This document shows, piece by piece, positions 45,317 through 64,000 of a DNA stretch of 64,000 bases. The position numbers and the translations under genes were made by a program. The notes under the pieces are model-generated. The model was not told the DNA's origin, ran no database searches, and was given only the letters and a program-made list of their open reading frames with translations. The stretch comes from Nitrospirales bacterium (GTDB taxonomy: Bacteria; Nitrospirota; Nitrospiria; Nitrospirales; UBA8639): NCBI GenBank assembly GCA_963555755.3, contig OY820905.2, positions 4,545,745-4,609,744 of the forward strand, written 5' to 3'. Every line of letters begins with the position of its first letter. The first letter of the stretch is position 1.

Positions 45317-45527
45317 TCATTCACCTCGTAGGCCCGACTGTCACGATAGACAGAAAATCACCGTACCAACATTCCCCGCTACTAGGCTTTCAGAGGAAAG
45401 GTCTAGGGAAAAAAGCAACTCGATCATGGTCTTTGATCATCGTCAGGACTCTTGTTCGGGGATGACCTGTCACCAGACGCGGCGTATCCGGTCCTGTGTC
45501 AACAATCCAAATGAGCGACACGCAGGC

Positions 45528-46070
45528 TTAGTCGTCCAGCATGGGCTCAGGGACCCCACCGATCATCGAAAAAATCAGCCCGCCAATCACGGCTTGTACA
45601 ATCCATCCAATAAGACATACGCCAATGGCTCGGTACGTACTGTGATAATCCAAGGCTTGGCGCACGGCAATCACCATGGCCACGAGCATCCACACACTCG
45701 CAAGAAGATTCACAATAGCGTCTAAGCCTGGAATGATGCCGAGAATCCGAATGATGCCTGGGGCGCTCGAAAAGCCAATTGTCCGAAGCAGTTCACCATG
45801 ATCAGCAGAGGTTTGGGGTTCGGGCAAAAGTTTCGTGCCAATGATGTAGGTCAAAAAAGCCCAGATATACCATCCGAGCAAGGAAAAAACCGTGCCGAGC
45901 AACAGCCCCATCAGCCCGGATTCTTGCATGAACCCAATCCCACCGGCCACGCTTGATAATACGACGACGGCCATCGCCTGGCTCATCGCATTCTTGTCGG
46001 CCTCCACTTCTTCATAGACCTGAACATCGAGTTTTGCCGCTCGTACCATCCGATCAACAAACTGGGTCAT
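45528..46070 (-). CDS. YIP1 family membrane protein, copy 1
   Basis: RMVRAAKLD...YEEVEAD, multiple TMs, LLRTIGFSSAPG, VIAVRQALD. Confidence 0.8.
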   Translation of the reverse strand: MTQFVDRMVRAAKLDVQVYEEVEADKNAMSQAMAVVVLSSVAGGIGFMQESGLMGLLLGTVFSLLGWYIWAFLTYIIGTKLLPEPQTSADHGELLRTIGFSSAPGIIRILGIIPGLDAIVNLLASVWMLVAMVIAVRQALDYHSTYRAIGVCLIGWIVQAVIGGLIFSMIGGVPEPMLDD

Positions 46071-46339
46071 AATGGTCGATCTCCTTTCCCTCACGAGGGA
46101 TAATGTACATGAAAAATGAAAAGATTGGTGCCCTAGGGGGAAGACAAGAAGCAATTATGAGGAACAGGCTGAGAAAGATCTACTCTTTTTCGGTGGGGAA
46201 TCAACTGAAATTTTGATGAGGGGAATTCGTGTAGCGAATGATCAAGGGAAATGGGGCTGATTCTTGGCCCTTCATCCGTTGTCCGCCGTGCCCGAAGTGG
46301 TCGGCGGGCATCCCTTCTCATGTCGGCATTTTTCCTTCT

Positions 46340-47467: not shown

Positions 47468-47498
47468 CCAATCATATTGTTTCCTTTAATAGCGGCGC

Positions 47499-48041
47499 TT
47501 AGTTATCCAGCATTGGCTCAGGGGGTCCACCCATCATCGTAAAAATCAATCCAATAATCACGGCTTGCACAATCCATCCAATAATACACACGCCAATGGC
47601 TCGGTACGTACTGTGATAATCCAAGGCTTGGCGCACGGCAATCACCATGGCCACGAGCATCCATATACTCGCAAGGATATTCACAATTGGGCCTAAGCCA
47701 GGAATAATGCCGAAAATCCGAATCATACCGGGGGAGCTCGAAAAGCCAATCGTCCGAAGCAGTTCACCATGATCAGCAGAGGTTTGGGGTTCAGGCAGAA
47801 GTTTCGTGCCAATGATGTAGGTCAAAAAAGCCCAGACATACCATCCGAGCAAGGACATGACCGTGCCCATCAACAACCCCGTCAGCCCGGATTCTTGCAT
47901 GAACCCAATACCACCGGCCACGCTTGATAACACGACAACGGTCATTGCCTGGCCCATGGAACTTTTGTCGGCTTCCACTTCTTCATAGACCTGAACGTCG
48001 AGTTTGGCAGCGCGTACCATTCGATCAACAATCTGAGTCAT
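47499..48041 (-). CDS. YIP1 family membrane protein, copy 2
   Basis: Colinear, same-length paralog of 45528-46070. Confidence 0.8.
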   Translation of the reverse strand: MTQIVDRMVRAAKLDVQVYEEVEADKSSMGQAMTVVVLSSVAGGIGFMQESGLTGLLMGTVMSLLGWYVWAFLTYIIGTKLLPEPQTSADHGELLRTIGFSSSPGMIRIFGIIPGLGPIVNILASIWMLVAMVIAVRQALDYHSTYRAIGVCIIGWIVQAVIIGLIFTMMGGPPEPMLDN

Positions 48042-48309
48042 AATGGTCGACCTCCTTTCCCTCACAAGGGATAATTTTCACTAGAATTGAAAAGGATTGT
48101 GCCTAATGGGAAGACAAGAAGCAATTATGCGGAACAGGTTGAGAGAAATCTATCATTCTTCGGTGAGGAATCAACTAAAATTTGGATGAGGAGAATTTGT
48201 TTGGCGAACGTTCAAGGAAAAGATTTCTGAGCCTTTCTTCATTTCCTAAAAATAAATCTGTCCCCTTTTCTTTTTTCTCAAAATGATTATCTAGGGACTT
48301 ATTGCTTTA

Positions 48310-53444: not shown

Positions 53445-54913
53445 CAATACTGTTCACTTAGATATCTTCGGTGGTTTGATGGATGGTGTCCAGTCAATTT
53501 GCGCAACGGGCGGTCTCGGACGTTTGTACGGTGCGTATGGAGAGTTTCGGCGTTTCACCATCCTCGGCTTGATTTTTCCACGACTGGATTCACACAACAG
53601 TTTCGCCGTCGCCTCAAACAGCAGCCGATACCATGTTTTTTGGCGCTCAGGGGGGAAGGGCCCCAGATTGGGGCAGGGTTCGACGCACTAACTGCACCGT
53701 GGCCGTAAAAGATACCGTGCGGTCAGGGATGTCTGCCTGGGTGGCCCCTTGATACATCAACCAGCGCACGGCGTAGTGGGCCATCACCCATCCGTAGAAC
53801 TCTTGACGCACCAACTCTGGCGTTTTACTGCGCAGGACGCGACGACGTTGCCTCAGGTGCGTCTTCAGCTCATCAAACACCAATTCCACCTCCCAGCGCT
53901 CGTGATACAGTTGAGCCAGGTCCTGGGCGGGTGCGCCTTGGTCATCCAGCAGCGTGGTGACGAGACGGTACAGCGGTTCGCTATTGGGCCCCTGCGGTAA
54001 GACATACTCAATCACCCTGATGGCGATCCCATCAATTCGCTTTCTTCTGGCGCGTTCACTGGGATACAGATGGCTCAGGTACGAGCCATCGTCCAACAGC
54101 TTGTCAACTGGAAGGATCAAGCTCTTCGGCATGCGCCAGAGTAGTTGCGCTCCGGTCTGAAGGCCGGCCTGCCAATGGGCGTACCCGACAAAGCCGCGAT
54201 CGGCCATGCAGAGCATGTCGGGCGTGAGGCGACGCACCAAGGGCGCGGCCACCTCCCATTCGGCCTGCTTATAGGCCCCTAGTTCGGCATCCAAAATGGC
54301 GTGACTGGCACATTCCGTCAAAATGGCGCACTGGGCTTGGGGGTAGCCGGCCTGCCCGGTTCGGCTCCCTGGGTACCCAAAGACTTGCACATTGGCTTCC
54401 TCATCCGGGACCTCAAAGTTGGAGCCATCTATCGCGACGAGTCGGTAGCCTGCAAAAAAGGCGTGGGCATGCTCTGGACGAGCCAACGGGCGCAAGCAGC
54501 GCTGTCCAATGGCTTTCAGCGCCTTCCACGTCAGCCGTGAGCGGGCTTTGCTGATGGCTGATTTGACAACGGTCACGGGAGCAACGGGTTTGTGGTCTTT
54601 CCATGCCAGCCCTTGGGCCACAGCGGCAAACACCGCTTCGTACGCGGCCTCGCTGTATAAGCTCAACGCCATGGTGTAGTACACCACGGCAGAAGCGGGA
54701 AAGGTGCGGACACGTTCACTGTTACAATGATGTGCGTCAAGTTCTTCGTTGATGATGGCCACCGGAAAGGCACGAGCCAGTAATCCCGTGCTCAAATAAT
54801 CCGCCAATCGAGCCCCCGCCCCCAAGCCGACTTTCTTTCTTGCCATGTTGCCTCCTCCCAGATTACGTGTGGAGGCGAAGTATAACAGATTTTCATCTAA
54901 GTGAACAGTATTG
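53445..54913 (-). mobile_element. IS4-family insertion sequence
   Basis: Perfect 19-bp TIR CAATACTGTTCACTTAGAT; 10-bp direct repeat GGTCAGGTCT at 53435-53444 and 54914-54923. Confidence 0.93.
53647..54846 (-). CDS. IS4-family DDE transposase (possible +1 frameshift extension to 53454)
   Basis: AIDGS, ADRGF, YREK motif YHERWEVELVFDELK; GGAGG RBS. Confidence 0.92.
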   Translation of the reverse strand: MARKKVGLGAGARLADYLSTGLLARAFPVAIINEELDAHHCNSERVRTFPASAVVYYTMALSLYSEAAYEAVFAAVAQGLAWKDHKPVAPVTVVKSAISKARSRLTWKALKAIGQRCLRPLARPEHAHAFFAGYRLVAIDGSNFEVPDEEANVQVFGYPGSRTGQAGYPQAQCAILTECASHAILDAELGAYKQAEWEVAAPLVRRLTPDMLCMADRGFVGYAHWQAGLQTGAQLLWRMPKSLILPVDKLLDDGSYLSHLYPSERARRKRIDGIAIRVIEYVLPQGPNSEPLYRLVTTLLDDQGAPAQDLAQLYHERWEVELVFDELKTHLRQRRRVLRSKTPELVRQEFYGWVMAHYAVRWLMYQGATQADIPDRTVSFTATVQLVRRTLPQSGALPP

Positions 54914-55291
54914 GGTCAGGTCTGCGAAAAAAGGCACTCAGCTCATGCTTACTAATTTTCAAATCAGCCAAGGCTAAAATCGACAAGATGTCATCAGCTT
55001 GTAAATTGAAGGCGATTTTCAGCTTCACGAAAATGATATTATTTTTCAGCCGTTTTTCTGGTGTAGGCTGCACGCCATCTTTTTTGCCACGCCTATCGTT
55101 TATCAAGCCATTCAGAAACGTGGCGAACATGGTGTCACGAAGAGCCACGTAATCTTCATCATCATCTTTTTTCAGCCATGCACTCACCTCTTCTCGTGTC
55201 ACGGTCTGATCGGCCTGGGCAAAAACATCAATCATTTTGGAATCGCCAAAATCGAGGATGTAGCGAATGCGACGCAAACAATCGTTATTGG

Positions 55292-55594
55292 TCATGTATT
55301 GGTTCCTGTATCTTCATGATTCTCCTGATCACTCGTTGGTGAGAGGTGGATTCGAATTTTTTCCTCAGCAAACTCTATAATATCACCGTCCATGATTTTC
55401 TTTCGCTTTTGAGTCTCGACGTTTCCATTGACTATTACGTGCCCCGCAGCCACCACAGCCTTCGCTTCGCCACCACTTTCTACCATATTTTCGAATTTCA
55501 ATATTTTATAAAGCTCAGTGGGCTCGCGAGAAATTTCCACGTCTCGAAATTGAAGCGGCTCTTTCTCAACTAAAGGCGTAGCGTTGTGATCCAT
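55292..55594 (-). CDS. RNA-binding S4 domain protein (YbcJ/YaaA-like), copy 1
   Basis: ELYKILKF....SGGEAK......V.VNG.VETQKRKKI..GD; ATGA overlap with yehS. Confidence 0.88.
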   Translation of the reverse strand: MDHNATPLVEKEPLQFRDVEISREPTELYKILKFENMVESGGEAKAVVAAGHVIVNGNVETQKRKKIMDGDIIEFAEEKIRIHLSPTSDQENHEDTGTNT

Positions 55595-55907
55595 GCTGAT
55601 GACCTTCTTCGTAAATGCAAAAGTTGTGATTCGTGTTGATCATGATTCAAGTAAAGCCTGAGTCGGCCCTTCACAAGTTGTAATGAATGGAAGGAGTAGG
55701 GGGCAAGTCTGTGGTTGGTAGTTTTGGCACGAACTCTTTGTCGCTCATTTAGCTACTGACCTTTTAATGGGAAAGTGATCTTGTACTCCTAGGCGGTGTG
55801 AAATAGAGTATTAGTCAACCAAAGATTTGCCCCTTTCCATTTTTCTTTTTTTTTGAAAATTGACCGGTTTTCCATCATGGGACTTTATCGCAATGTAATT
55901 CGACGGT

Positions 55908-56330
55908 TTAATGCGTAAATATGACACGTAGGGCGGACAGCTTCAGGGTACTGCTTTGCAAACGCTTTTCCAGATCGGTAATTTTTGTGCTTAGTGATTG
56001 CACTTCTTCATCGCGAATTGTTGGGTTGCGCTTTTGCAGGGTAAGCAGACGCTGTAACTCGCCATCTAATTCTGCGTGCATTGACGCGATGGCAGCATTG
56101 CGAAACATTGGAGGCTGTTGCGAGGCTATTCCCTCAATTTGTTGCACCTGTTTTTTTAATGTCGTACGAGTCCTATCGATCACTTGCCGTGCAACTTCCT
56201 GATCGATCTTTTCCAGTAGAGTTTCATAGATGTCAGGTGTTAGTTGTCGTGCATAATTTTCCCCCTCCTGGTTGACCAGCAAGCGCAATGCGTTGCAAGG
56301 AAGGTAGCGACCGATGTCTAACCCGGCGGG
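55908..56330 (-). pseudogene. Duplicated 3' fragment of rapA
   Basis: Colinear with 58521-58943 (offset 2613), including ~90 bp downstream of the stop. Confidence 0.9.
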
Positions 56331-56560
56331 AGCCTTCTAGCACATCAACCAATAACCCATTTATTTTTTTGCCTTCAATGGCACCAGTCGTATATTCAAT
56401 TCGATTGCCTTCTGATTTATGAATTGAGGCATGTATTATCTGATCGGCATCGCAAACCACAGCAAGGTTTAGGAAAAGTACATAATTATTGTTCATGATT
56501 TTTTGTCAGTGGAGAGGGGATGGAAAATTATCATTATCTTCTTCCCTTTGGATTCTCCTC

Positions 56561-56747
56561 GACGCCTGCTGGCTGGGCATTTTGGCGGAGGCTCGTAACG
56601 TCCTGCGGACCTTGTTTGAGCGTAGCGAGTTGGTCCGCTTTCCAAAGGTTAGCTTTCGACCCAGGTGATGTGGCCAGACAGGGCGTCAATGGTTTTGGGT
56701 CCTTTTGCCGAAAGAAAAGGACCTCGGCTGCCTGGCCGAAACCCGGC
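56561..56747 (+). repeat. Multi-hairpin structured non-coding element
   Basis: GACGCC/GGCGTC outer stem, GCGGACC/GGTCCGC, GGTCCTTTT/AAAAGGACC, GAAA-containing loops; single copy in the window. Confidence 0.5.
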
Positions 56748-56764
56748 AAGGCTTAAATAATTGA

Positions 56765-56839
56765 ATGAAGAAACTGTTATTTGTCTGTAGTGAAAATCGG
56801 CTTCGCAGGCAAACGGCAGAGGTCATCTTTTCCGATTAG
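56765..56839 (+). pseudogene. N-terminal remnant of an LMW-PTP-like phosphatase
   Basis: MKKLLFVCSENRLRRQTAEVIFSD* resembles the LFVCxxNxxRSPTAE P-loop. Confidence 0.65.
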
Positions 56840-56964
56840 GCCAGATCATGTGCTATTTGGGATGGGCTCACGCCATACCTTGAATTCAAATCCACCTGAG
56901 CGGGAAACGAGGCTTCAGGCCACCAACATTGCGATTGATTCGTATTCTTTCGCGAGCCCTCAGG

Positions 56965-58224
56965 CTATTTTTTTCTCTTTTGAGGTTTTCTTTTTTTCTT
57001 TTTTTCCCTTTTCTCCTCCTCCTCCTTATCTATTTCTTTTAGCAACTCCTCCAAAGTGGGTTCCCCGCTGGGATGTGTCACCGTAAAGGCGTAATCCTTT
57101 TTCGTGAGTTCGATGACATCGATCTCTTGATCTAAAAACCCTTGAATCTCCTCAAGCCGTGACTTTTCTTCTTTGCTGCAGAACGAAATCGCTATCCCCT
57201 TTTTGACCCCACGCCCGGTTCTTCCCACACGGTGAACGTAGTTTTCTGCCCTATCCGGCAAGTCATAGTTCAGCACATAATGAACATCAGGAATGTCGAT
57301 GCCGCGTGCGCTAACATCTGTGGCGATTAAAATCTGACAGGCCCCTGCTTTAAATGCGTTCATCACCTCAGCCCGGTCACACTGATCCTTTTCCCCATGA
57401 ATCGTCAGCGTTTCTATCCCGACTCGACCCATCGCCTTGGCGACCCGTTCAGCGCGCACTCGCGTCCGGACAAACACGATCACCCGGCTCTCAGGATTAT
57501 CGGTCAGGAACCGCTCCAGGAAAAACCGTTTATCATCCATTTCAACGAACATCACATAGTGCGAGACATTTTTTGAGACACGATTGTCCGGTGAGATTTG
57601 AATCCGGATAGCCGAACTTCTCACCTGAGAATACGCCAGTTTTTTGATGTCGGCATTTATTGTTGCTGAGAAAAAGAGCGTTTGATGTTTGTGTGGCAGC
57701 TTTGTTTTGATCGCATGAATATCTCCAATAAATCCGAGATCGAGCATGTGATCGGCTTCATCCAACACAAGGGTTCGCACGTGGTTCAGCAGAACATACC
57801 CCTGACTGATCAGATCAAACAGTCGGCCGGGTGTCGTAATGAGCACATCGATGCCCTTCTGAAGTGTTTGTATCTGCGGGTCCTGCTCAACGCCGCCATA
57901 CATGGCAAACACCTTGACCTTGGTCTTTTTGGAAAGCTGGGCAAAGACCTCTCCAATCTGCATCGCCAGTTCGTGGGTCGGCACCATGACAATACATTGG
58001 ATACCATTGGAGCGTTGGCTCCTTTTCCACTGGTCGATCTGATTAATGATCGGGATGGCAAATGCGGCCGTTTTCCCCGTTCCTGTTTGGGCGATGGCCA
58101 GGACATCTTCCCCCGCCATGATCGAGGGCATGGCTTTAAATTGGATGTCCGTTGTTTTGACAAACCCGAGTCGGGACAGGTTATTTTTCAAAGCATCTGA
58201 AATGGGATATTTTTCAAACTTCAT
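56965..58224 (-). CDS. DEAD-box RNA helicase (RhlE-like)
   Basis: AQTGTGKT, PTHELA, TPGR, DEAD, SAT, ARGID, HRVGRTGR; basic tail. Confidence 0.95.
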   Translation of the reverse strand: MKFEKYPISDALKNNLSRLGFVKTTDIQFKAMPSIMAGEDVLAIAQTGTGKTAAFAIPIINQIDQWKRSQRSNGIQCIVMVPTHELAMQIGEVFAQLSKKTKVKVFAMYGGVEQDPQIQTLQKGIDVLITTPGRLFDLISQGYVLLNHVRTLVLDEADHMLDLGFIGDIHAIKTKLPHKHQTLFFSATINADIKKLAYSQVRSSAIRIQISPDNRVSKNVSHYVMFVEMDDKRFFLERFLTDNPESRVIVFVRTRVRAERVAKAMGRVGIETLTIHGEKDQCDRAEVMNAFKAGACQILIATDVSARGIDIPDVHYVLNYDLPDRAENYVHRVGRTGRGVKKGIAISFCSKEEKSRLEEIQGFLDQEIDVIELTKKDYAFTVTHPSGEPTLEELLKEIDKEEEEKREKKKKRKPQKRKK

Positions 58225-58256
58225 GGCGTTTCAATACGTCTTCTACAGAATAGAAA

Positions 58257-58449
58257 TAGGGGTCAAAACTTTGGTTGACTAAAATAGGGGTCAAATAGGG
58301 GTCAAAATAGGGGTCATTGGTTCAATAGGGGTCAATAGGGGTCAAATCTTTGGTTGAATAATACTTCAGATCTCGGGTCAAGGAATCATCAGTAGTTGAA
58401 AGTGACGCGAGGCCTGCAAAGCGAAACTCTTAACCAAAGATTTGCCCCC
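58257..58449. repeat. TAGGGGTCA stutter cluster plus inverted partner motif
   Basis: Six TAGGGGTCA at 58257, 58285, 58296, 58308, 58326 and 58336; two extend as AA(A/T)CTTTGGTTGA. Reverse copy TAACCAAAGATTTGCCCCC at 58431-58449. Confidence 0.8.
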
Positions 58450-58520
58450 TTCCATTTTTCTTTTTTTTAAAATTGACTGGTTTCCCATCATGGGACTTTA
58501 TCGCAATGTAATTCGACGGT

Positions 58521-61301
58521 TTAATTCGTAAATATGACACGTAGGGCGGACAGCTTCAGGGTACTGCTTTTCAAACGCTTTTCCAGATCGGAAATTTTGG
58601 TGCTCAGTGCTTGCACTTCTTCATCACGTATTGTTGGGTTGCGCTTTTGCAGGGTAAGCAGACGCTGTAACTCGCCATCTAATTCTGCGTGCATTGACGC
58701 GATGGCCGCATTGCGAAACATTGGAAGCTGTCGCGAGGCCATTTCCTCAATTTTTTTCACCTGTTTTTTTAATGTCGTACGTGTCCTATCGATCAATTTC
58801 CGTGCGACTTCCTGATCGATCTTTTCCAGTAGCGTTTCATAGATGTCAGGTGTTAGTTGTCGTGCATAGTTTTCGCCCTCCTGGTTGACCAGCAAGCGAA
58901 ATGCGTTGCAAGGAAGGTAGCGACCGATGTCTAACCAGGCGGGTGCTGGGCAGTTCGATTCGAATAATGCTTCGATCAAAATACTGCGAGGTGGAAGTTG
59001 TGACATGTGTAACGCGCAGACGCTGACCCTGCCTTTTTCTCCGTTCACAATCATGTCGATTGTCGCGCGCACCAATGGGTGCTCCCAGCTCAGAAAATGC
59101 ATGTCTTCTCGCGCAAGCGCGGTCTCGCGATTGGTCGTCACGGTGATGCCGTCTTCGGGTAACTCAGAAAATTGTTCGACCTGTAAATGAGCACCTGGCC
59201 GTACGACCCAACTGCTTAGCGAATGATCTTCAATTTCCACCCCAAGACAATCAAAGGCTTTTTCGAGATATTGTGATATCACGCCGGCCTGTTCATTTTG
59301 ATTGATTTCTCTAATCAACGGGTCGGCAATGTCTTTACGGCAACCACTGAGTTCGAACAACCGATTTCGACCGAGGTTGAGTTGCCGGATCTTTTGTTTG
59401 TGCAGATGCTTGCACTCGCTGATAAACCTGTCTTCATCGAGGTGTTCGCCTATCAGGTAGGCGGCAAATTGTTCATCCATCTCAGCCTTGATGTGTTGGC
59501 CGGTTGCACAACTTTGCTCAAACGCATTGAGTGAATGATGGTACCAGTGGCTCAACCGTGCTTCTCTTGAACCTGCCGCGACAGGCACGTGAATATTGAT
59601 CTCGTACTCCTGCCCGATTCTATCCAGGCGGCCAATGCGCTGCTCCAGTAAATCGGGGTTATCGGGTAAGTCGAACAACACGATATTGTGTAGAAATTGA
59701 AAATTTCGGCCTTCGCTGCCAATCTCCGAGCAAATCATAATTCGCGCACCGTCTTCGGCATCGGCAAACCAGGCGGCAGCGCGGTCTCGTTCCAGGATAC
59801 TCATGTGTTCATGAAACACACTGGCTTGTACACCATGCTGTTGCAGAAGTATTTTTGACGTGAAAACCGCGCTCTCGGCTGTTGCACAAATCAGTAGTAC
59901 TTTGTGCGGGGATAGTTCTCGTAGTTTGTCGGAAAGCCAGCTAATACGGGACTCGTTTCTGTCATCGTCGAGTACAGCAGGAATAAAATGACGTTGGGGA
60001 AAACCGCCGATGGTCGCACGGGTGTTCCTGAACAACATGCGGCCAGTGCCGTGTTGATCTATTAAATTGTCGATGATTTGTCGTCGAATTGTGTGTGCAT
60101 CGTCATTAGCGGCATTGATGCCTGTTATGTCAATGGCGTCGCAATCATCAATGAGCGAACGTAATCGCGCCAGATCTTCTTCAGCCATTGCCTGATTATC
60201 GAGTAGTAGATTTACCAGCTCGACAGTCTCGGCATGTTGTATCTCCTCGGATAGATAGCTTTCGAGCGAGTGGAAACGCGCCGGGTCGAGTAGTCGCAAG
60301 CGGGCAAAGTGCCCTGCTGTGCCGAATTGTTCGGGTGTGGCGGTTAATAACAACACTGAATCTGACTTATGAGCCAATGTCTCGATTTGTCGATACTCGC
60401 GGCTGCTCTCGCTCGGTGTCCACTCAAGACGGTGCGCTTCATCGACGACCAATATATCCCAATCGCACGTGGCAATTAACGGGGCGATATCATCGCGGCA
60501 GGCAAAGGTTAATCCGCATAACACGAGAGAGTATTGATCGAAATAGTTTTCAATAGGTGCCGATTCTTCAGAATTGTCAATTACCTGGTCGATATTTGAA
60601 AAATACTGTTCATCAATTATGGTGAAGCGTAAATTAAAGCGCCGTAGCAATTCCACCAGCCACTGATGCAGTAGTGGTTCGGGTACGATAATTAATGCAC
60701 GGTGTATTCTCCCGGTCAGTATCAGACGGTGCAGAATTAAACCGGCTTCAATGGTTTTACCGAGGCCCACTTCATCGGCGAGCAGAACACGCGGGGCTGT
60801 TCTATTTGATACTTCATTGGCAATATAAATTTGATGTGGAATCAGGCTGACACGTGGCCCCTGTAAGCCAAAGCTTGCTGATGTTTGTTGTTTGGCAAGG
60901 TGTCGCAGCGTTGTCGCGCGCAGCTCAAACCATTTGTTGTCGTCAACTTGTCCGGCAAACAGCTTGTCTTGCGGTACATTAAAAGTGATTTTATCGGACA
61001 GTTCACATTCGTTCAGGGTGGTAGCTTGGCCACTGTCTCGAATGCCGTGGTAACGCACGGTGCCGCTGTCATGTTCTATTTTGGTAATCGATAGATACCA
61101 ACCCTCCATACTTTTAATTGATTCACCGATATCAAATTTAACACGCGTTAGTGGGGCATTAATTTTTGCATAGGTGCGCGTTTCATCGGCGGCGGGAAAT
61201 TCCATTTGAACCGTGCGAAAGGCAACAGATTGGACGATGCCCAACCCGAGGGCGGCATCGTTGTCACTAACCCAGCGCTGGCCGGGCGTAAATTTATGCA
61301 T
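58521..61301 (-). CDS. rapA: RNA polymerase-associated SNF2 ATPase RapA/HepA
   Basis: GQRWVSD...LGLG, ADEVGLGKTIEAG, DEAH, LTATPEQ, SEIGSEGRNFQF, EQRIGRLDRIGQ, RapA C-terminal domain. Confidence 0.95.
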   Translation of the reverse strand: MHKFTPGQRWVSDNDAALGLGIVQSVAFRTVQMEFPAADETRTYAKINAPLTRVKFDIGESIKSMEGWYLSITKIEHDSGTVRYHGIRDSGQATTLNECELSDKITFNVPQDKLFAGQVDDNKWFELRATTLRHLAKQQTSASFGLQGPRVSLIPHQIYIANEVSNRTAPRVLLADEVGLGKTIEAGLILHRLILTGRIHRALIIVPEPLLHQWLVELLRRFNLRFTIIDEQYFSNIDQVIDNSEESAPIENYFDQYSLVLCGLTFACRDDIAPLIATCDWDILVVDEAHRLEWTPSESSREYRQIETLAHKSDSVLLLTATPEQFGTAGHFARLRLLDPARFHSLESYLSEEIQHAETVELVNLLLDNQAMAEEDLARLRSLIDDCDAIDITGINAANDDAHTIRRQIIDNLIDQHGTGRMLFRNTRATIGGFPQRHFIPAVLDDDRNESRISWLSDKLRELSPHKVLLICATAESAVFTSKILLQQHGVQASVFHEHMSILERDRAAAWFADAEDGARIMICSEIGSEGRNFQFLHNIVLFDLPDNPDLLEQRIGRLDRIGQEYEINIHVPVAAGSREARLSHWYHHSLNAFEQSCATGQHIKAEMDEQFAAYLIGEHLDEDRFISECKHLHKQKIRQLNLGRNRLFELSGCRKDIADPLIREINQNEQAGVISQYLEKAFDCLGVEIEDHSLSSWVVRPGAHLQVEQFSELPEDGITVTTNRETALAREDMHFLSWEHPLVRATIDMIVNGEKGRVSVCALHMSQLPPRSILIEALFESNCPAPAWLDIGRYLPCNAFRLLVNQEGENYARQLTPDIYETLLEKIDQEVARKLIDRTRTTLKKQVKKIEEMASRQLPMFRNAAIASMHAELDGELQRLLTLQKRNPTIRDEEVQALSTKISDLEKRLKSSTLKLSALRVIFTN

Positions 61302-61532
61302 GGTGTTCGTTCATCTTCTTTTAAGAGGTCAGAAATTGTTTCTCTGCGAAGCACTATAATCAGTTTCGTAGAGGTGGGAGTCAGTTTTTTGCATGCCCAG
61401 CGAAAAGGAAAAGAAAAGGGGTTAAATCTCTCGTTGAGATCATGGGGTTCATGGGGGCAAGTCTTGATTTAATATATTAAATTTCAGAAAAGGTATTAGG
61501 TGAAAACCCGACCCCTTGATTGACCCCTTGAC

Positions 61533-61574
61533 CAAGATGTAGGGAATGCGACGCAGGCAATCGTTATTGTTCAT
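61533..61574 (-). pseudogene. 14-codon 5' remnant of a second yehS copy
   Basis: MNNNDCLRRIPYIL matches the yehS start at 55295 with the same ATGA overlap with the S4 gene; homology stops at the GACCCC motif. Confidence 0.75.
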
Positions 61575-61873
61575 GTAGGTGTTTCTGTGACGTCAAGATT
61601 CTCATCACCGCTAGTTGGTGAGAGTTGAATTCGAATTTTTTCATCAGCAAACTCGATCGTATCACCGGCCATGATCTTCTTTCGCTTTTGAGTCTCGACG
61701 TTTCCATTGACTATTACGTGCCCCGCAGCCACCGCAGCCTTTGCTTCGCCTCCACTTCCGACCATACTTTCGAATTTCAATATTTTATAGAGCTCAATAG
61801 GCTCGTGAGAAATTTCCACGTCTCGAAATCCAATCGGTGCTTCCTCAACGGAAGGCGTCGCGTTGTGATCCAT
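61571..61873 (-). CDS. RNA-binding S4 domain protein, copy 2
   Basis: Same-length paralog of 55292-55594 (offset 6279); upstream DNA also homologous. Confidence 0.88.
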   Translation of the reverse strand: MDHNATPSVEEAPIGFRDVEISHEPIELYKILKFESMVGSGGEAKAAVAAGHVIVNGNVETQKRKKIMAGDTIEFADEKIRIQLSPTSGDENLDVTETPT

Positions 61874-62380
61874 GCTGATGACCTTCTTCGTCAGTAATAA
61901 AGTGGAGATTCGAGTTGATCCTGATTCAAATATGGGCTGAACCGGCCCTTCATATGTTGTAATGGATGCAATGAGTAGGAGGCAAGTCTTTGGTTGAGAG
62001 TGTCGGTGTATACCCTCACCCCTTCCTCCGCAACTACTTGTTTCTCAATGTGGGGATTTCCTGGACCCTTCCGGTTCAAATCAGAGTCTGCAACTGGGCT
62101 ATTTAGTCAACCAAAGATTCGACCTCTTATCGACCCCCTTATTTGGCTTCGAGTCAGAAGCCTGAGTCCCCTACGCCAAACCCTCAACAAAAGATTTGCT
62201 CCATTCCCGTACGCCGAACAATCAGGTCTGCTAGCATGGCCTCTACCCACAGATATCGCTATCAATATGACGTTGGACCTCTCCGAGGTGAAGAATCATC
62301 GGATCAGTCATTCAGGGCCCGTTGAATAATTCAGATTCATTGGCCATAGATACTTCAGGACGGTCCCCTACATCAGTGAG

Positions 62381-62504
62381 AGGGGATGTTCAAAAAAGTT
62401 CGTCCAGCAAGGCCGCAGCCGTTTTGACGCGCGGAGCGTACTCTCAGTACGTGAGCACGGCAAAAGGGCGAGAACGCCGCTGGCGGCTTTTTTCAACATT
62501 CCCA
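62381..62504. mobile_element. MITE F copy (inverted)
   Basis: GGGGATGTTCAAAAAA...CCAGCAAGGCCGCAG...GAGAACGCCGCTGG...TTTTTCAACATTCCC. Confidence 0.8.
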
Positions 62505-62540: not shown

Positions 62541-63482
62541 ATGCCCGCAAAAATACAATACGCCTATCTGGCTCCAGAAGGATTTCAGGATCAACTAGCC
62601 AACGAGCTTGAGGGAATTCAATCCCAGCATGGACGGTTGATTGTGACGGATCGTCTTCCTGAACAACCTCCCTTGTGGGCGCAGAATTGTTGGCGCAATC
62701 CCATCTTGATACCCATACAGTCGATTTCAGACGCGGCCCAAAAACTCAAATCCCTCCAAAGAAACTGGAGCCTGTACTCCTTTCACTTGCATCGACGAGG
62801 CCAACTGATTCAGGAACAACTTCCTTATGTCTCCGCAAAGCCACTACATTTTCCAACGTGGCTACCTCAATCCCCTCTGGGGTCGTGGACTCTTCTGGAT
62901 CGAGAGACTCTATTGGCCGCCAGCGACTGTTCGAGTGCATTTCCAAATGGAGAAATACAGTTTGCGGAAGATAAGAAAAACCCACCGAACCGGGCTTACC
63001 TGAAGTTATGGGAAGCACTGACGACTGTCCAGCAACATCCCAACTCTGGCCAGTTTTGCATTGATGTCGGAGCAAGCCCAGGAGGGTGGACCTGGGTCCT
63101 GGCGCAATTGGGCGCTGAAGTATTAAGCATTGACCGATCTTTGTTAGACAAAAGAATATCTGAAATGCCGGGAGTTTATTTTCAAAAAGGGGATGCCTTT
63201 TCCCTCAGTCCAGAAAAGTTCAAAGAGACTCGAGAAAAAACCGACTGGCTATTCAGCGACCTCGTGTGTTATCCCGAAAAACTTTTCGACTGGGTCACGA
63301 TGTGGATCGAATCAGGCATATGCGATAATTTTATTTGCACCCTGAAGTTTCAGGGGGACAGCGATTACCACATAGCCCAAAGATTTGCGGCCATACCCCA
63401 TAGCCAAGTGCTTCACCTTTTTCACAACAAGCATGAGTTGACCTGGATAAAGCTGAAGGCCTGGGAACCATTCCCCTCATGA
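62541..63482 (+). CDS. RlmM-like (FtsJ-fold) rRNA 2'-O-methyltransferase
   Basis: PPNRAYLKLWEA, DVGASPGGWT, FSDL, TLKF, HNKHE (K-D-K-E tetrad). Confidence 0.8.
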   Translation: MPAKIQYAYLAPEGFQDQLANELEGIQSQHGRLIVTDRLPEQPPLWAQNCWRNPILIPIQSISDAAQKLKSLQRNWSLYSFHLHRRGQLIQEQLPYVSAKPLHFPTWLPQSPLGSWTLLDRETLLAASDCSSAFPNGEIQFAEDKKNPPNRAYLKLWEALTTVQQHPNSGQFCIDVGASPGGWTWVLAQLGAEVLSIDRSLLDKRISEMPGVYFQKGDAFSLSPEKFKETREKTDWLFSDLVCYPEKLFDWVTMWIESGICDNFICTLKFQGDSDYHIAQRFAAIPHSQVLHLFHNKHELTWIKLKAWEPFPS

Positions 63483-63762
63483 AACCCATTGACCCAAGCC
63501 AAAGTTCTAGACAGGACATTGGCAGAAGCGCACGCCGATGCAACCGCGGCTGATCTCTTCACCCAAGACGGTGAGGAGCACGTACGTATTGAATGTCATT
63601 GACATGATAAAACACATGAGCATACTAAATGCGGGTTGGCCTAAGCATGAATCCATGCAAAATGGCCTCAATAGATTAGTAAATAGGATTGACCCTTTTT
63701 TTGACCATTTTTTGTTATCCAGGCCCAGCTAAAACCGTCTGCATCAGGGATGATGCAAGCAC

Positions 63763-64000
63763 TCAATCGATTCGCGCAAACACCGCTTTTAGATAGTCCA
63801 TTTCTGGCATCGCCGCATTGACTGGATGGTCTGCGCCCAGCCCACCTTGATACACTATCGATGTACTGCGGCCCGCCTTGTATCCCGCAGTCTGCACTAT
63901 CCTTGTCAACGCATCGCGCTGCAAGTGCAGAGAGCAAGAGGCGCTGACTAACAAGCCCTGCTGGTCCAGCAGTTTTAACGCTAGCTGGTTAATGTGATGA
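63763..64000 (-). CDS. rlmI: C-terminus of an RlmI-like class I SAM rRNA methyltransferase (runs off the window)
   Basis: HINQLALKLL...GLLVSASCS.H...GADHPV...PE.DYLK. Confidence 0.75.
   Translation of the reverse strand, partial: HHINQLALKLLDQQGLLVSASCSLHLQRDALTRIVQTAGYKAGRSTSIVYQGGLGADHPVNAAMPEMDYLKAVFARID

Follow-up and report, generated by a model that had tools for sequence, protein, structure and literature searches.

Paired inverted copies of a 20-nt motif in the 64-kb window (the whole stretch of Nitrospirales DNA analysed, 64,000 nucleotides) are, by the features of their ends, non-autonomous miniatures (~140 bp) of a TIRtron. The ends of such miniatures stand at many borders of gene blocks which, as sequence comparison indicates, are common to distant marine nitrite-oxidising bacteria. 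We propose, with a probability of about 0.6, that a Y1 enzyme joins the two ends separately, by a short tag to a G, cuts the resulting junctions again and in this way reshuffles the blocks. The element class has been known since 2013; its junction rules and a movement of cargo were not found in the literature searched.

The window motif forms the ends of a TIRtron

The 20-nt motif matches the window seven times at up to three mismatches, where 0.01 matches would be expected, and the genome (4.6 Mb, subsequently named G000) 114 times at up to four mismatches, 50 of these being exact. The preliminary description had supposed a Y1 HUH (RAYT-type) gene linked to the motif, and such a gene was located between exact copies of it. 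The Y1_Tnp profile matches the genome 17 times; the gene in question (L009, C1:761,652–762,608) encodes a 319-aa protein with Y1_Tnp and Bac_DnaA_C domains (Pfam) and predicted enzyme activity, and lies inside an element of 1,016 bp (C1:761600–762615) both ends of which are the window motif. A sequence search of the PDB gave matches to DnaA domain IV and none to an HUH structure. The terminal inverted repeats (TIRs) of the element are 20 bp long and perfect, fit GGGG[AT][CG]A[CG] at 7 of 8 positions (GGGGTCAA) and diverge just inside the repeat (GAGTTTC on the left, CTAA on the right). The autonomous element is composed of a tag, a 27-bp left end, the 319-aa gene and a right end within which the stop codon falls. 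The other Y1 genes of the genome have GGGGTC-led ends of their own; L006–L008 are near-identical to each other, and the Y1 genes of this genome are, as their copies indicate, mobile and multi-copy. Among metagenome homologues, GGGGTC-led TIR pairs were present at 46 of the 67 loci examined (80 were returned). A plasmid search yielded one record at E ≤ 1e-40, with 37% identity.

By the features tested, the 1,016-bp element is a TIRtron (TIRYT) of subclass 2.1.2. The class was described by Di Nocera (2013, PMC3733652) and assigned to TnpA_Y1 subclass 2.1.2 by Quentin (2018, 10.1101/279083), in whose survey subclass 2.1 is the second-largest Y1 protein group, found in 14.9% of strains. As in the published TIRtrons, a Y1 core carries a Bac_DnaA_C tail, the TIRs are GGGG-led with one of them overlapping the 3′ end of the gene, and TIR dimers and clusters occur elsewhere in the genome. 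In the text of these two descriptive papers we found neither a rule for the junctions nor a tag or target base, and neither large duplications nor a movement of cargo; some of these may appear in their figures or supplements. Beyond them our literature search, which had most subscription papers outside its scope, returned a single preprint, on an enzyme of subclass 2.1 that lacks TIRs, and no experimental study of subclass 2.1 or test of an enzyme binding or cutting TIRs.

The sites had initially been read as REP/REPIN-like. REPtrons (TnpA_REP with REP-BIME or REPIN copies, PMC3333891) are similar in that an HUH gene is flanked by the repeat and paired non-autonomous copies exist, the activity in trans being predicted in our case. 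Unlike REPs as portrayed in that source, the ends have no GTAG foot and no palindrome within each repeat; pairing occurs between two ends only, and left and right ends differ and match those of the gene-bearing element. We rejected the REP/REPIN reading and regard the sites instead as asymmetric TIRs of TIRtron miniatures.

Miniature elements in the genome and in the window

The genome contains 23 small pairs of this family (family A), 20 of which measure 134–149 bp; they keep the left/right asymmetry of the parent and consist of both ends around a filler of ~90 bp. A genome tally of 105 motif matches comprises these 23 small pairs and 57 unpaired ends. In a genome search the interiors of the miniatures (MITEs) occurred in MITEs only. 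They do not match the interior of the parent, and a plain internal deletion of the L009 element was discarded as their origin. Family-A sites cluster, 32 of 47 lying within 10 kb of another compared with 8.5 by chance, and two arrays of four directly repeated MITEs each separate cargo at C1:88–97 kb and 4,096–4,106 kb; the four at 88–97 kb are identical and in direct orientation. Family-A ends are scarce in relatives (17 matches in 5 genomes). Folding of the four window MITEs as single-stranded hairpins gave z-scores of −4.4, −2.0, −1.6 and −0.5, so that two fold weakly, the sequence behind the −0.5 value having ended short of the right tip.

Motif pairs do stand where the preliminary description had placed them, at 55699–55834, 58338–58449, 61453–61527 and 61978–62126. 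Some assignments had to be revised: the pair at 61453–61527 and three further copies (43015, 43772 and 43940) are of other TIR families, the site at 48254 is a different motif and that at 63687 is degenerate. The orientation of the MITEs alternates within the window, and the island genes from yehS to the second S4 gene are all on one strand.

The island starts with a split copy of yehS (DUF1456), the 5′ part of which occupies 54914–55295 (minus strand); the remainder, from 53444 to ~53311, lies left of an IS4-family element (53445–54913, minus); the 10-bp target duplication of this element, GGTCAGGTCT, looks like a TIR end and lies inside yehS. In the genome, 19 of 21 full copies of this IS4-family element, with 10-bp target duplications close to GGTCAGGTCT, are situated inside TIRtron ends. 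To the right of S4-domain gene copy 1 (55292–55594, minus), a G007-like allele, stands a family-A MITE (55695–55838, plus) with the tag AGTA and with its left end at 55699 and its right end at 55834; its interior is 79% like the 1,572,043 subfamily. Next comes a rapA 3′ stub with the RapA_C domain (55908–56333, minus), 94% identical to the full gene; no TIR end was found at its 5′ break (56333). An 87-aa ORF without Pfam match (56233–56496) runs into the stub at this position.

A DEAD-box helicase block (56965–58224, minus) adjoins a run of truncated end copies, AATA-GGGGTC scars (58245–58337, plus), that is shorter in near-identical environmental strains. The following family-A MITE of 112 bp (58338–58449, minus) has the opposite orientation, with its right end at 58338 and its left end at 58449; the same MITE stands after rapA in G011. 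Full rapA (58521–61301, minus) is 91% identical to that of G002. Upstream of it, AAAA scars and a degenerate family-A end (61403–61437, plus) are joined after CCAGCG, and G002 carries a different TIR family at the same G. The MITE of a second TIR family (61453–61531, plus; pair 61453–61527) has one scar and the tag TCAA, and resembles, at 85%, the one that G007 carries upstream of S4. To this tag a yehS stub (61532–61574, minus) is joined.

To the right of S4-domain gene copy 2 (61571–61873, minus), a G011-like allele, stands a family-A MITE of 149 bp (61978–62126, within 61974–62142, plus) with tag AGTA and a right scar and with relatives at C1:4,362,568 and in G011; a lone degenerate family-A end (62183–62202, minus) is present in G011 too. 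The FtsJ-family methyltransferase gene (62541–63482, plus; presumably RlmM-like) forms with the S4–MITE block a segment, S4–MITE–rlmM, that is also present in G011 at 89% identity. A dispersed repeat of ~120–190 bp with hundreds of matches occupies 62315–62503 and is missing at this place in G011. The window ends with the contig, and its last 288 bp (63713–64000) are 100% identical to C1:36,648–36,935. Two Yip1-domain genes (45526–46251 and 47497–48221), 83–89% alike and without a family-A motif, surround a fatty-acid hydroxylase gene; G002 has related copies in changed order.

The breaks in these genes agree with the preliminary description. Both copies of the rapA 3′ block (94% identity, offset ~2613) begin at an end, both S4 blocks (85–86%, offset 6279) finish at one, and the second yehS is cut after 14 codons and one G, of codon 15, directly abutting the tag TCAA. 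The different offsets had been taken as a sign against one tandem duplication; the offsets are as given. An in-genome duplication of S4 was ruled out by its tree, in which copy 1 clusters with the G007 sequence (support 0.97) and copy 2 with that of G011 (0.93), and the two copies are therefore separately acquired alleles. Their geometry resembles a 442-bp target duplication, as 55253–55694 and 61532–61973 flank a MITE-bounded unit of 5.8 kb. The rapA stub and full rapA are weak sisters in their tree (support 0.53). As far as tested, the duplications are not assembly artefacts: the sites at 58.3, 61.5 and 62.0 kb are spanned by contigs of one near-identical run, which may be the source sample, and these contigs contain both rapA-3′ and both S4 alleles. 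Joints 58361–61458, 58357–62099, 58362–62177 and 61411–61552, with short sides or low depth and perhaps stemming from other repeat copies, were left out.

A tag and a target G define the junctions

Comparison of family-A flanks with uninterrupted paralogues showed that homology stops exactly 4 nt outside GGGG in 8 of 14 cases, 7 of them on a G; the remaining six stop at −3, −5 or further out. Because homology stops there, the 4-nt tag (AAAA, TAAA, AATA, GATA and others) is considered part of the end. The junctions take the form target...G/NNNA GGGGTC, the slash marking the joint. Position −5 is occupied by a G in 43 of 66 family-A ends of this genome (after omission of 10 intron-interrupted ends), in 20 of 29 ends in four other genomes (12 regions) and in only 39 of 89 ends of more distant homologues; the counts lack independence, and their P-values are inflated by kin and duplicate copies. 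Nested truncated copies are frequent at the ends, every one of them starting at the tag, and their number varies among near-identical environmental strains. One such strain has the DEAD junction as ...ACAACAG/AATA, with native upstream sequence that is missing from the window; the cut in yehS copy 2 reads ...TTG G/TCAA. Tagged junctions were found on both strands. A genome-wide scan for target duplications found no fixed-length duplication at intact elements; its base tallies were set aside, since its family list also included the group II intron and other non-TIR repeats.

These features also separate the element from IS200/IS605, which was considered and rejected: TIRs and tagged junctions on both strands stand against the absence of TIRs, subterminal hairpins and one active strand in that family (PMC3333891).

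The same blocks have different neighbours in other genomes

Core DNA of this genome is 74–78% identical to that of G002, 71–78% to G003 and 67–74% to G011, and has no match in G007 at E ≤ 1e-60. Island blocks are 89–96% identical between genomes whose core DNA is at 67–78%: the DEAD block reaches 94–96% with G002, G003, G006 and G007, and the S4–yehS block 90% with G007. The neighbours of the DEAD, rapA, S4–yehS and S4–MITE–rlmM blocks differ in each genome. At the 3′ border of the DEAD block (56896/7) G003 and G007 have other TIR families, and upstream of rapA this genome and G002 have different TIR families at the same G.

Among 61 genomes, 6 were found to have the S4 gene. Upstream of it, 6 of 7 copies carry an end at the same G, with at least four unrelated interiors that leave only ~11–20 bp of common sequence; the tags differ by 1–2 bases (AGTA, AGGA, ATGA). 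To judge from these sequences, one old junction at the S4 border followed by exchange inside the 11-bp TIR core would fit as well. Certain blocks were carried together with an internal MITE, such as S4–MITE–rlmM in G011.

Relatives of rapA in the Nitrospirales are 75–87% identical, which places the host in this order, and their neighbours differ across 16 Nitrospirales loci; in most of these 16 more distant loci no TIR end was found at either side of rapA. Across marine Nitrospirales rapA combines varied neighbours with a conserved leader of ~100 bp, and it is ~40% identical to gammaproteobacterial RapA.

The expected enrichment of ends at synteny breakpoints was observed and is modest. From 38 alignment ends, 4 at the IS4 element and 3 at contig ends were dropped and 19 distinct positions remained. 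Ends lie within 25 bp of 8 of these 19 compared with 2.7 by chance (P = 0.002), and of 7 of 19 when compared with non-coding positions only (P = 0.04). The other 11 breakpoints, including the 5′ break of the rapA stub, have no end within 25 bp. Of the earlier picture of motif-bordered cassettes shuffled between genomes, the bordered blocks common to several genera hold, but the blocks fall short of precise single-gene cassettes, many of them being fragments. ‘Cassette array’ is thus too strong a term, and gene shuffling by re-used TIRtron ends is the likely description.

Long direct repeats around cargo that probably moved

A unit of 6.0 kb at C1:4,100,367–4,106,390 contains three MITEs and two cargo segments between direct repeats of 2,025 bp, which are 100% identical, an observation at the level of the assembly. 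Both repeat junctions read G/AAAA, on opposite strands; the genes truncated are an integrase at the left copy and a PEP-CTERM gene at the right. At the left junction two of three relatives continue uninterrupted for ~120–145 bp past it and the third for ~45 bp. Apart from IS and short repeats, the cargo is single-copy in the genome. This is the only complete long duplication among TIR ends in the genome-wide scan, and it would be explained by two separate joining events on opposite strands. A partial, similar case of 617 bp (C1:87,773 and 94,384, beside an IS6-like gene) flanks the 88–97 kb array. Ends in G010 and G050 adjoin duplicated DNA from nearby, and in G050 one end is fused to part of the interior of its own transposase gene. 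Gene fragments beside ends derive from yehS, an AbiEii copy, the integrase, the PEP-CTERM gene, P450 and NmrA.

CBASS-type genes (JAB, E1-E2, DncV-like, patatin; L192:10863–15343, C1:96.8–101.8 kb) have the right end of a MITE on one side and a degenerate family-A end on the other, with AbiEii and its partial copy in the same array. Beside rapA in G002 (C46, L080:500–7150), numerous GGGGTCAGGTCTTGCA ends and one TIRYT gene alternate with RHS toxin 3′ fragments and immunity-like ORFs. At G000:C1:1,569–1,572 kb two MITEs likewise enclose an RHS/CdiI segment. TIR ends may shuffle the tips of polymorphic toxins.

DISCUSSION

A chemical basis for separate joining of the ends is offered by TnpA_REP, which cuts single-stranded DNA with low specificity and at a distance, carries out strand exchange and tandem amplification and has been proposed to sequester flanking genes (PMC3333891). 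It is described there as cutting between C and T, unlike the cut envisaged here after G and before the tag. From the scars we infer that nicking by the Y1 enzyme would take place on single-stranded DNA, on the 5′ side of the tag, and that the enzyme would stay linked to the end through a 5′-phosphotyrosine, open to attack by the target 3′-OH after the G. As the 5′ tags of the two ends lie on opposite strands, the ends would be joined in two events. Such joining would leave nested scars, cut genes and local duplications and, once in this genome, the 2,025-bp duplication around the 6-kb unit of three MITEs. An existing G/tag junction would be a preferred site, so that the border of a block would persist while its MITE and gene neighbours differ from genome to genome. 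New targets would thus lead to captured and cut genes, old junctions to exchange of ends and stable borders. RecA exchange between identical MITEs probably contributes.

A bolder version, which we advance tentatively and think rather doubtful, is a site-specific recombination network driven by HUH enzymes, with interchangeable G/tag junctions of several TIR families. Whole gene modules (S4–yehS, the DEAD helicase, rapA and defence genes) would be excised and re-integrated across Nitrospirales genera. If true, integron-like arrays could arise by a further route, in addition to IntI/attC and Xer/pdif, and one already parasitised by its own site-homing IS4 element and group II intron.

The strongest rival to separate joining holds that the MITEs are passive markers which insert and re-insert at each other's ends in a tolerant island, that the Y1 enzyme spreads MITEs only, and that the blocks are swapped by RecA or microhomology recombination together with horizontal transfer. 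We think this unlikely. It would account for the modest breakpoint enrichment (P = 0.04 against non-coding positions), the blocks that cross MITEs (S4–MITE–rlmM) and the motif-free Yip1 pair in the island, and the four identical direct MITEs at C1:88–97 kb are ready substrates for RecA. However, RecA cannot make new G/tag junctions inside genes, such as those in yehS codon 15 and in the integrase, nor can it produce a duplication of 2,025 bp whose tagged junctions lie on opposite strands, and unrelated MITE interiors at the same border share only ~11–20 bp.

Even less probable is a domesticated, integron-like system with attC-like MITEs and the Y1 enzyme as an integrase that excises and reorders whole-gene cassettes for the benefit of the host. 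The fixed borders re-used across genera, the common strand from yehS to S4 copy 2 and the homing of a group II intron and the IS4 element to the ends, as IIC introns home to attC, would agree with it; same-orientation MITE arrays hold AbiEii and a toxin–antitoxin pair, and the CBASS genes adjoin one array. But many blocks are gene fragments, the MITE orientation alternates and the Y1 genes themselves are mobile and multi-copy (L006–L008). The Y1 gene is not beside the island, where we found no attI- or promoter-like platform. The true integron integrase of the genome, its sole IntI (C1:318,997), is far from the window and from end clusters, with none in its bins, and a link to it was rejected; the integrase is full and, like its two 3′ fragments (325,317 and 332,481), has no connection with the present system.

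A DDE transposase acting on the MITEs in trans, or assembly artefacts behind the duplications, would suit the presence of TIRs as in DDE MITEs and a genome full of DDE IS but is largely refuted and scarcely credible: a fixed-length duplication as in a classical DDE MITE was not found, the ends belong to the Y1 gene and overlap its stop codon, and the alleles differ by 6–15% and are both present in independent contigs.

Integron and CALIN arrays are characterised by a linked tyrosine recombinase, attC boxes and whole single-ORF cassettes with like-oriented sites. Unlike these, the TIR ends are accompanied by no linked tyrosine recombinase, no attC boxes and no whole-ORF precision, and their orientation is mixed. 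As in integron/CALIN arrays and Acinetobacter pdif modules (PMC10132070), paired sites stand between genes and are re-used as borders. Pseudo-compound transposons and translocatable units of IS26 (PMC7986276) likewise have direct-repeat arrays that separate cargo, and target joining at an existing copy; IS26 is an autonomous DDE element with 8-bp duplications, compared with ~140-bp MITEs, an HUH enzyme and no fixed duplication here, and no IS6-family DDE transposase with an 8-bp duplication is involved. In its effect the system seems to work most like IS26 arrays (PMC7986276) or pdif modules. A TnpA_REP of the same subclass 2.1 beside prochlorosin genes has been proposed to diversify neighbouring genes (10.1101/2020.03.09.984088); it lacks TIRs, in contrast to the ends and junctions visible here.

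With its tag, target base, two distinct ends (left and right) and 140-bp mini-element, this genome supplies a concrete substrate. Its sequence also bears signs that TIRtron ends move kilobases of cargo and that genes exchanged between genera have such ends as borders used repeatedly. A TIR-using HUH enzyme with kilobase-long target duplications would, if confirmed, represent a new transposition chemistry and a so far unrecognised driver of accessory-island assembly.

As in integrons, where group IIC introns target attC (PMC7923331), the TIR ends are targeted by a specialised IS and by a group II intron. The intron has the unusual 5′ start GCATG (e.g. G000:C1 240690, 687543 and 2226040); 12 of 12 of its 5′ ends follow the TGACC of a TIR end, in at least four TIR families, and its 3′ exon, where seen, is CC plus the tag. 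Its position at TIR ends parallels that of IIC introns at attC.
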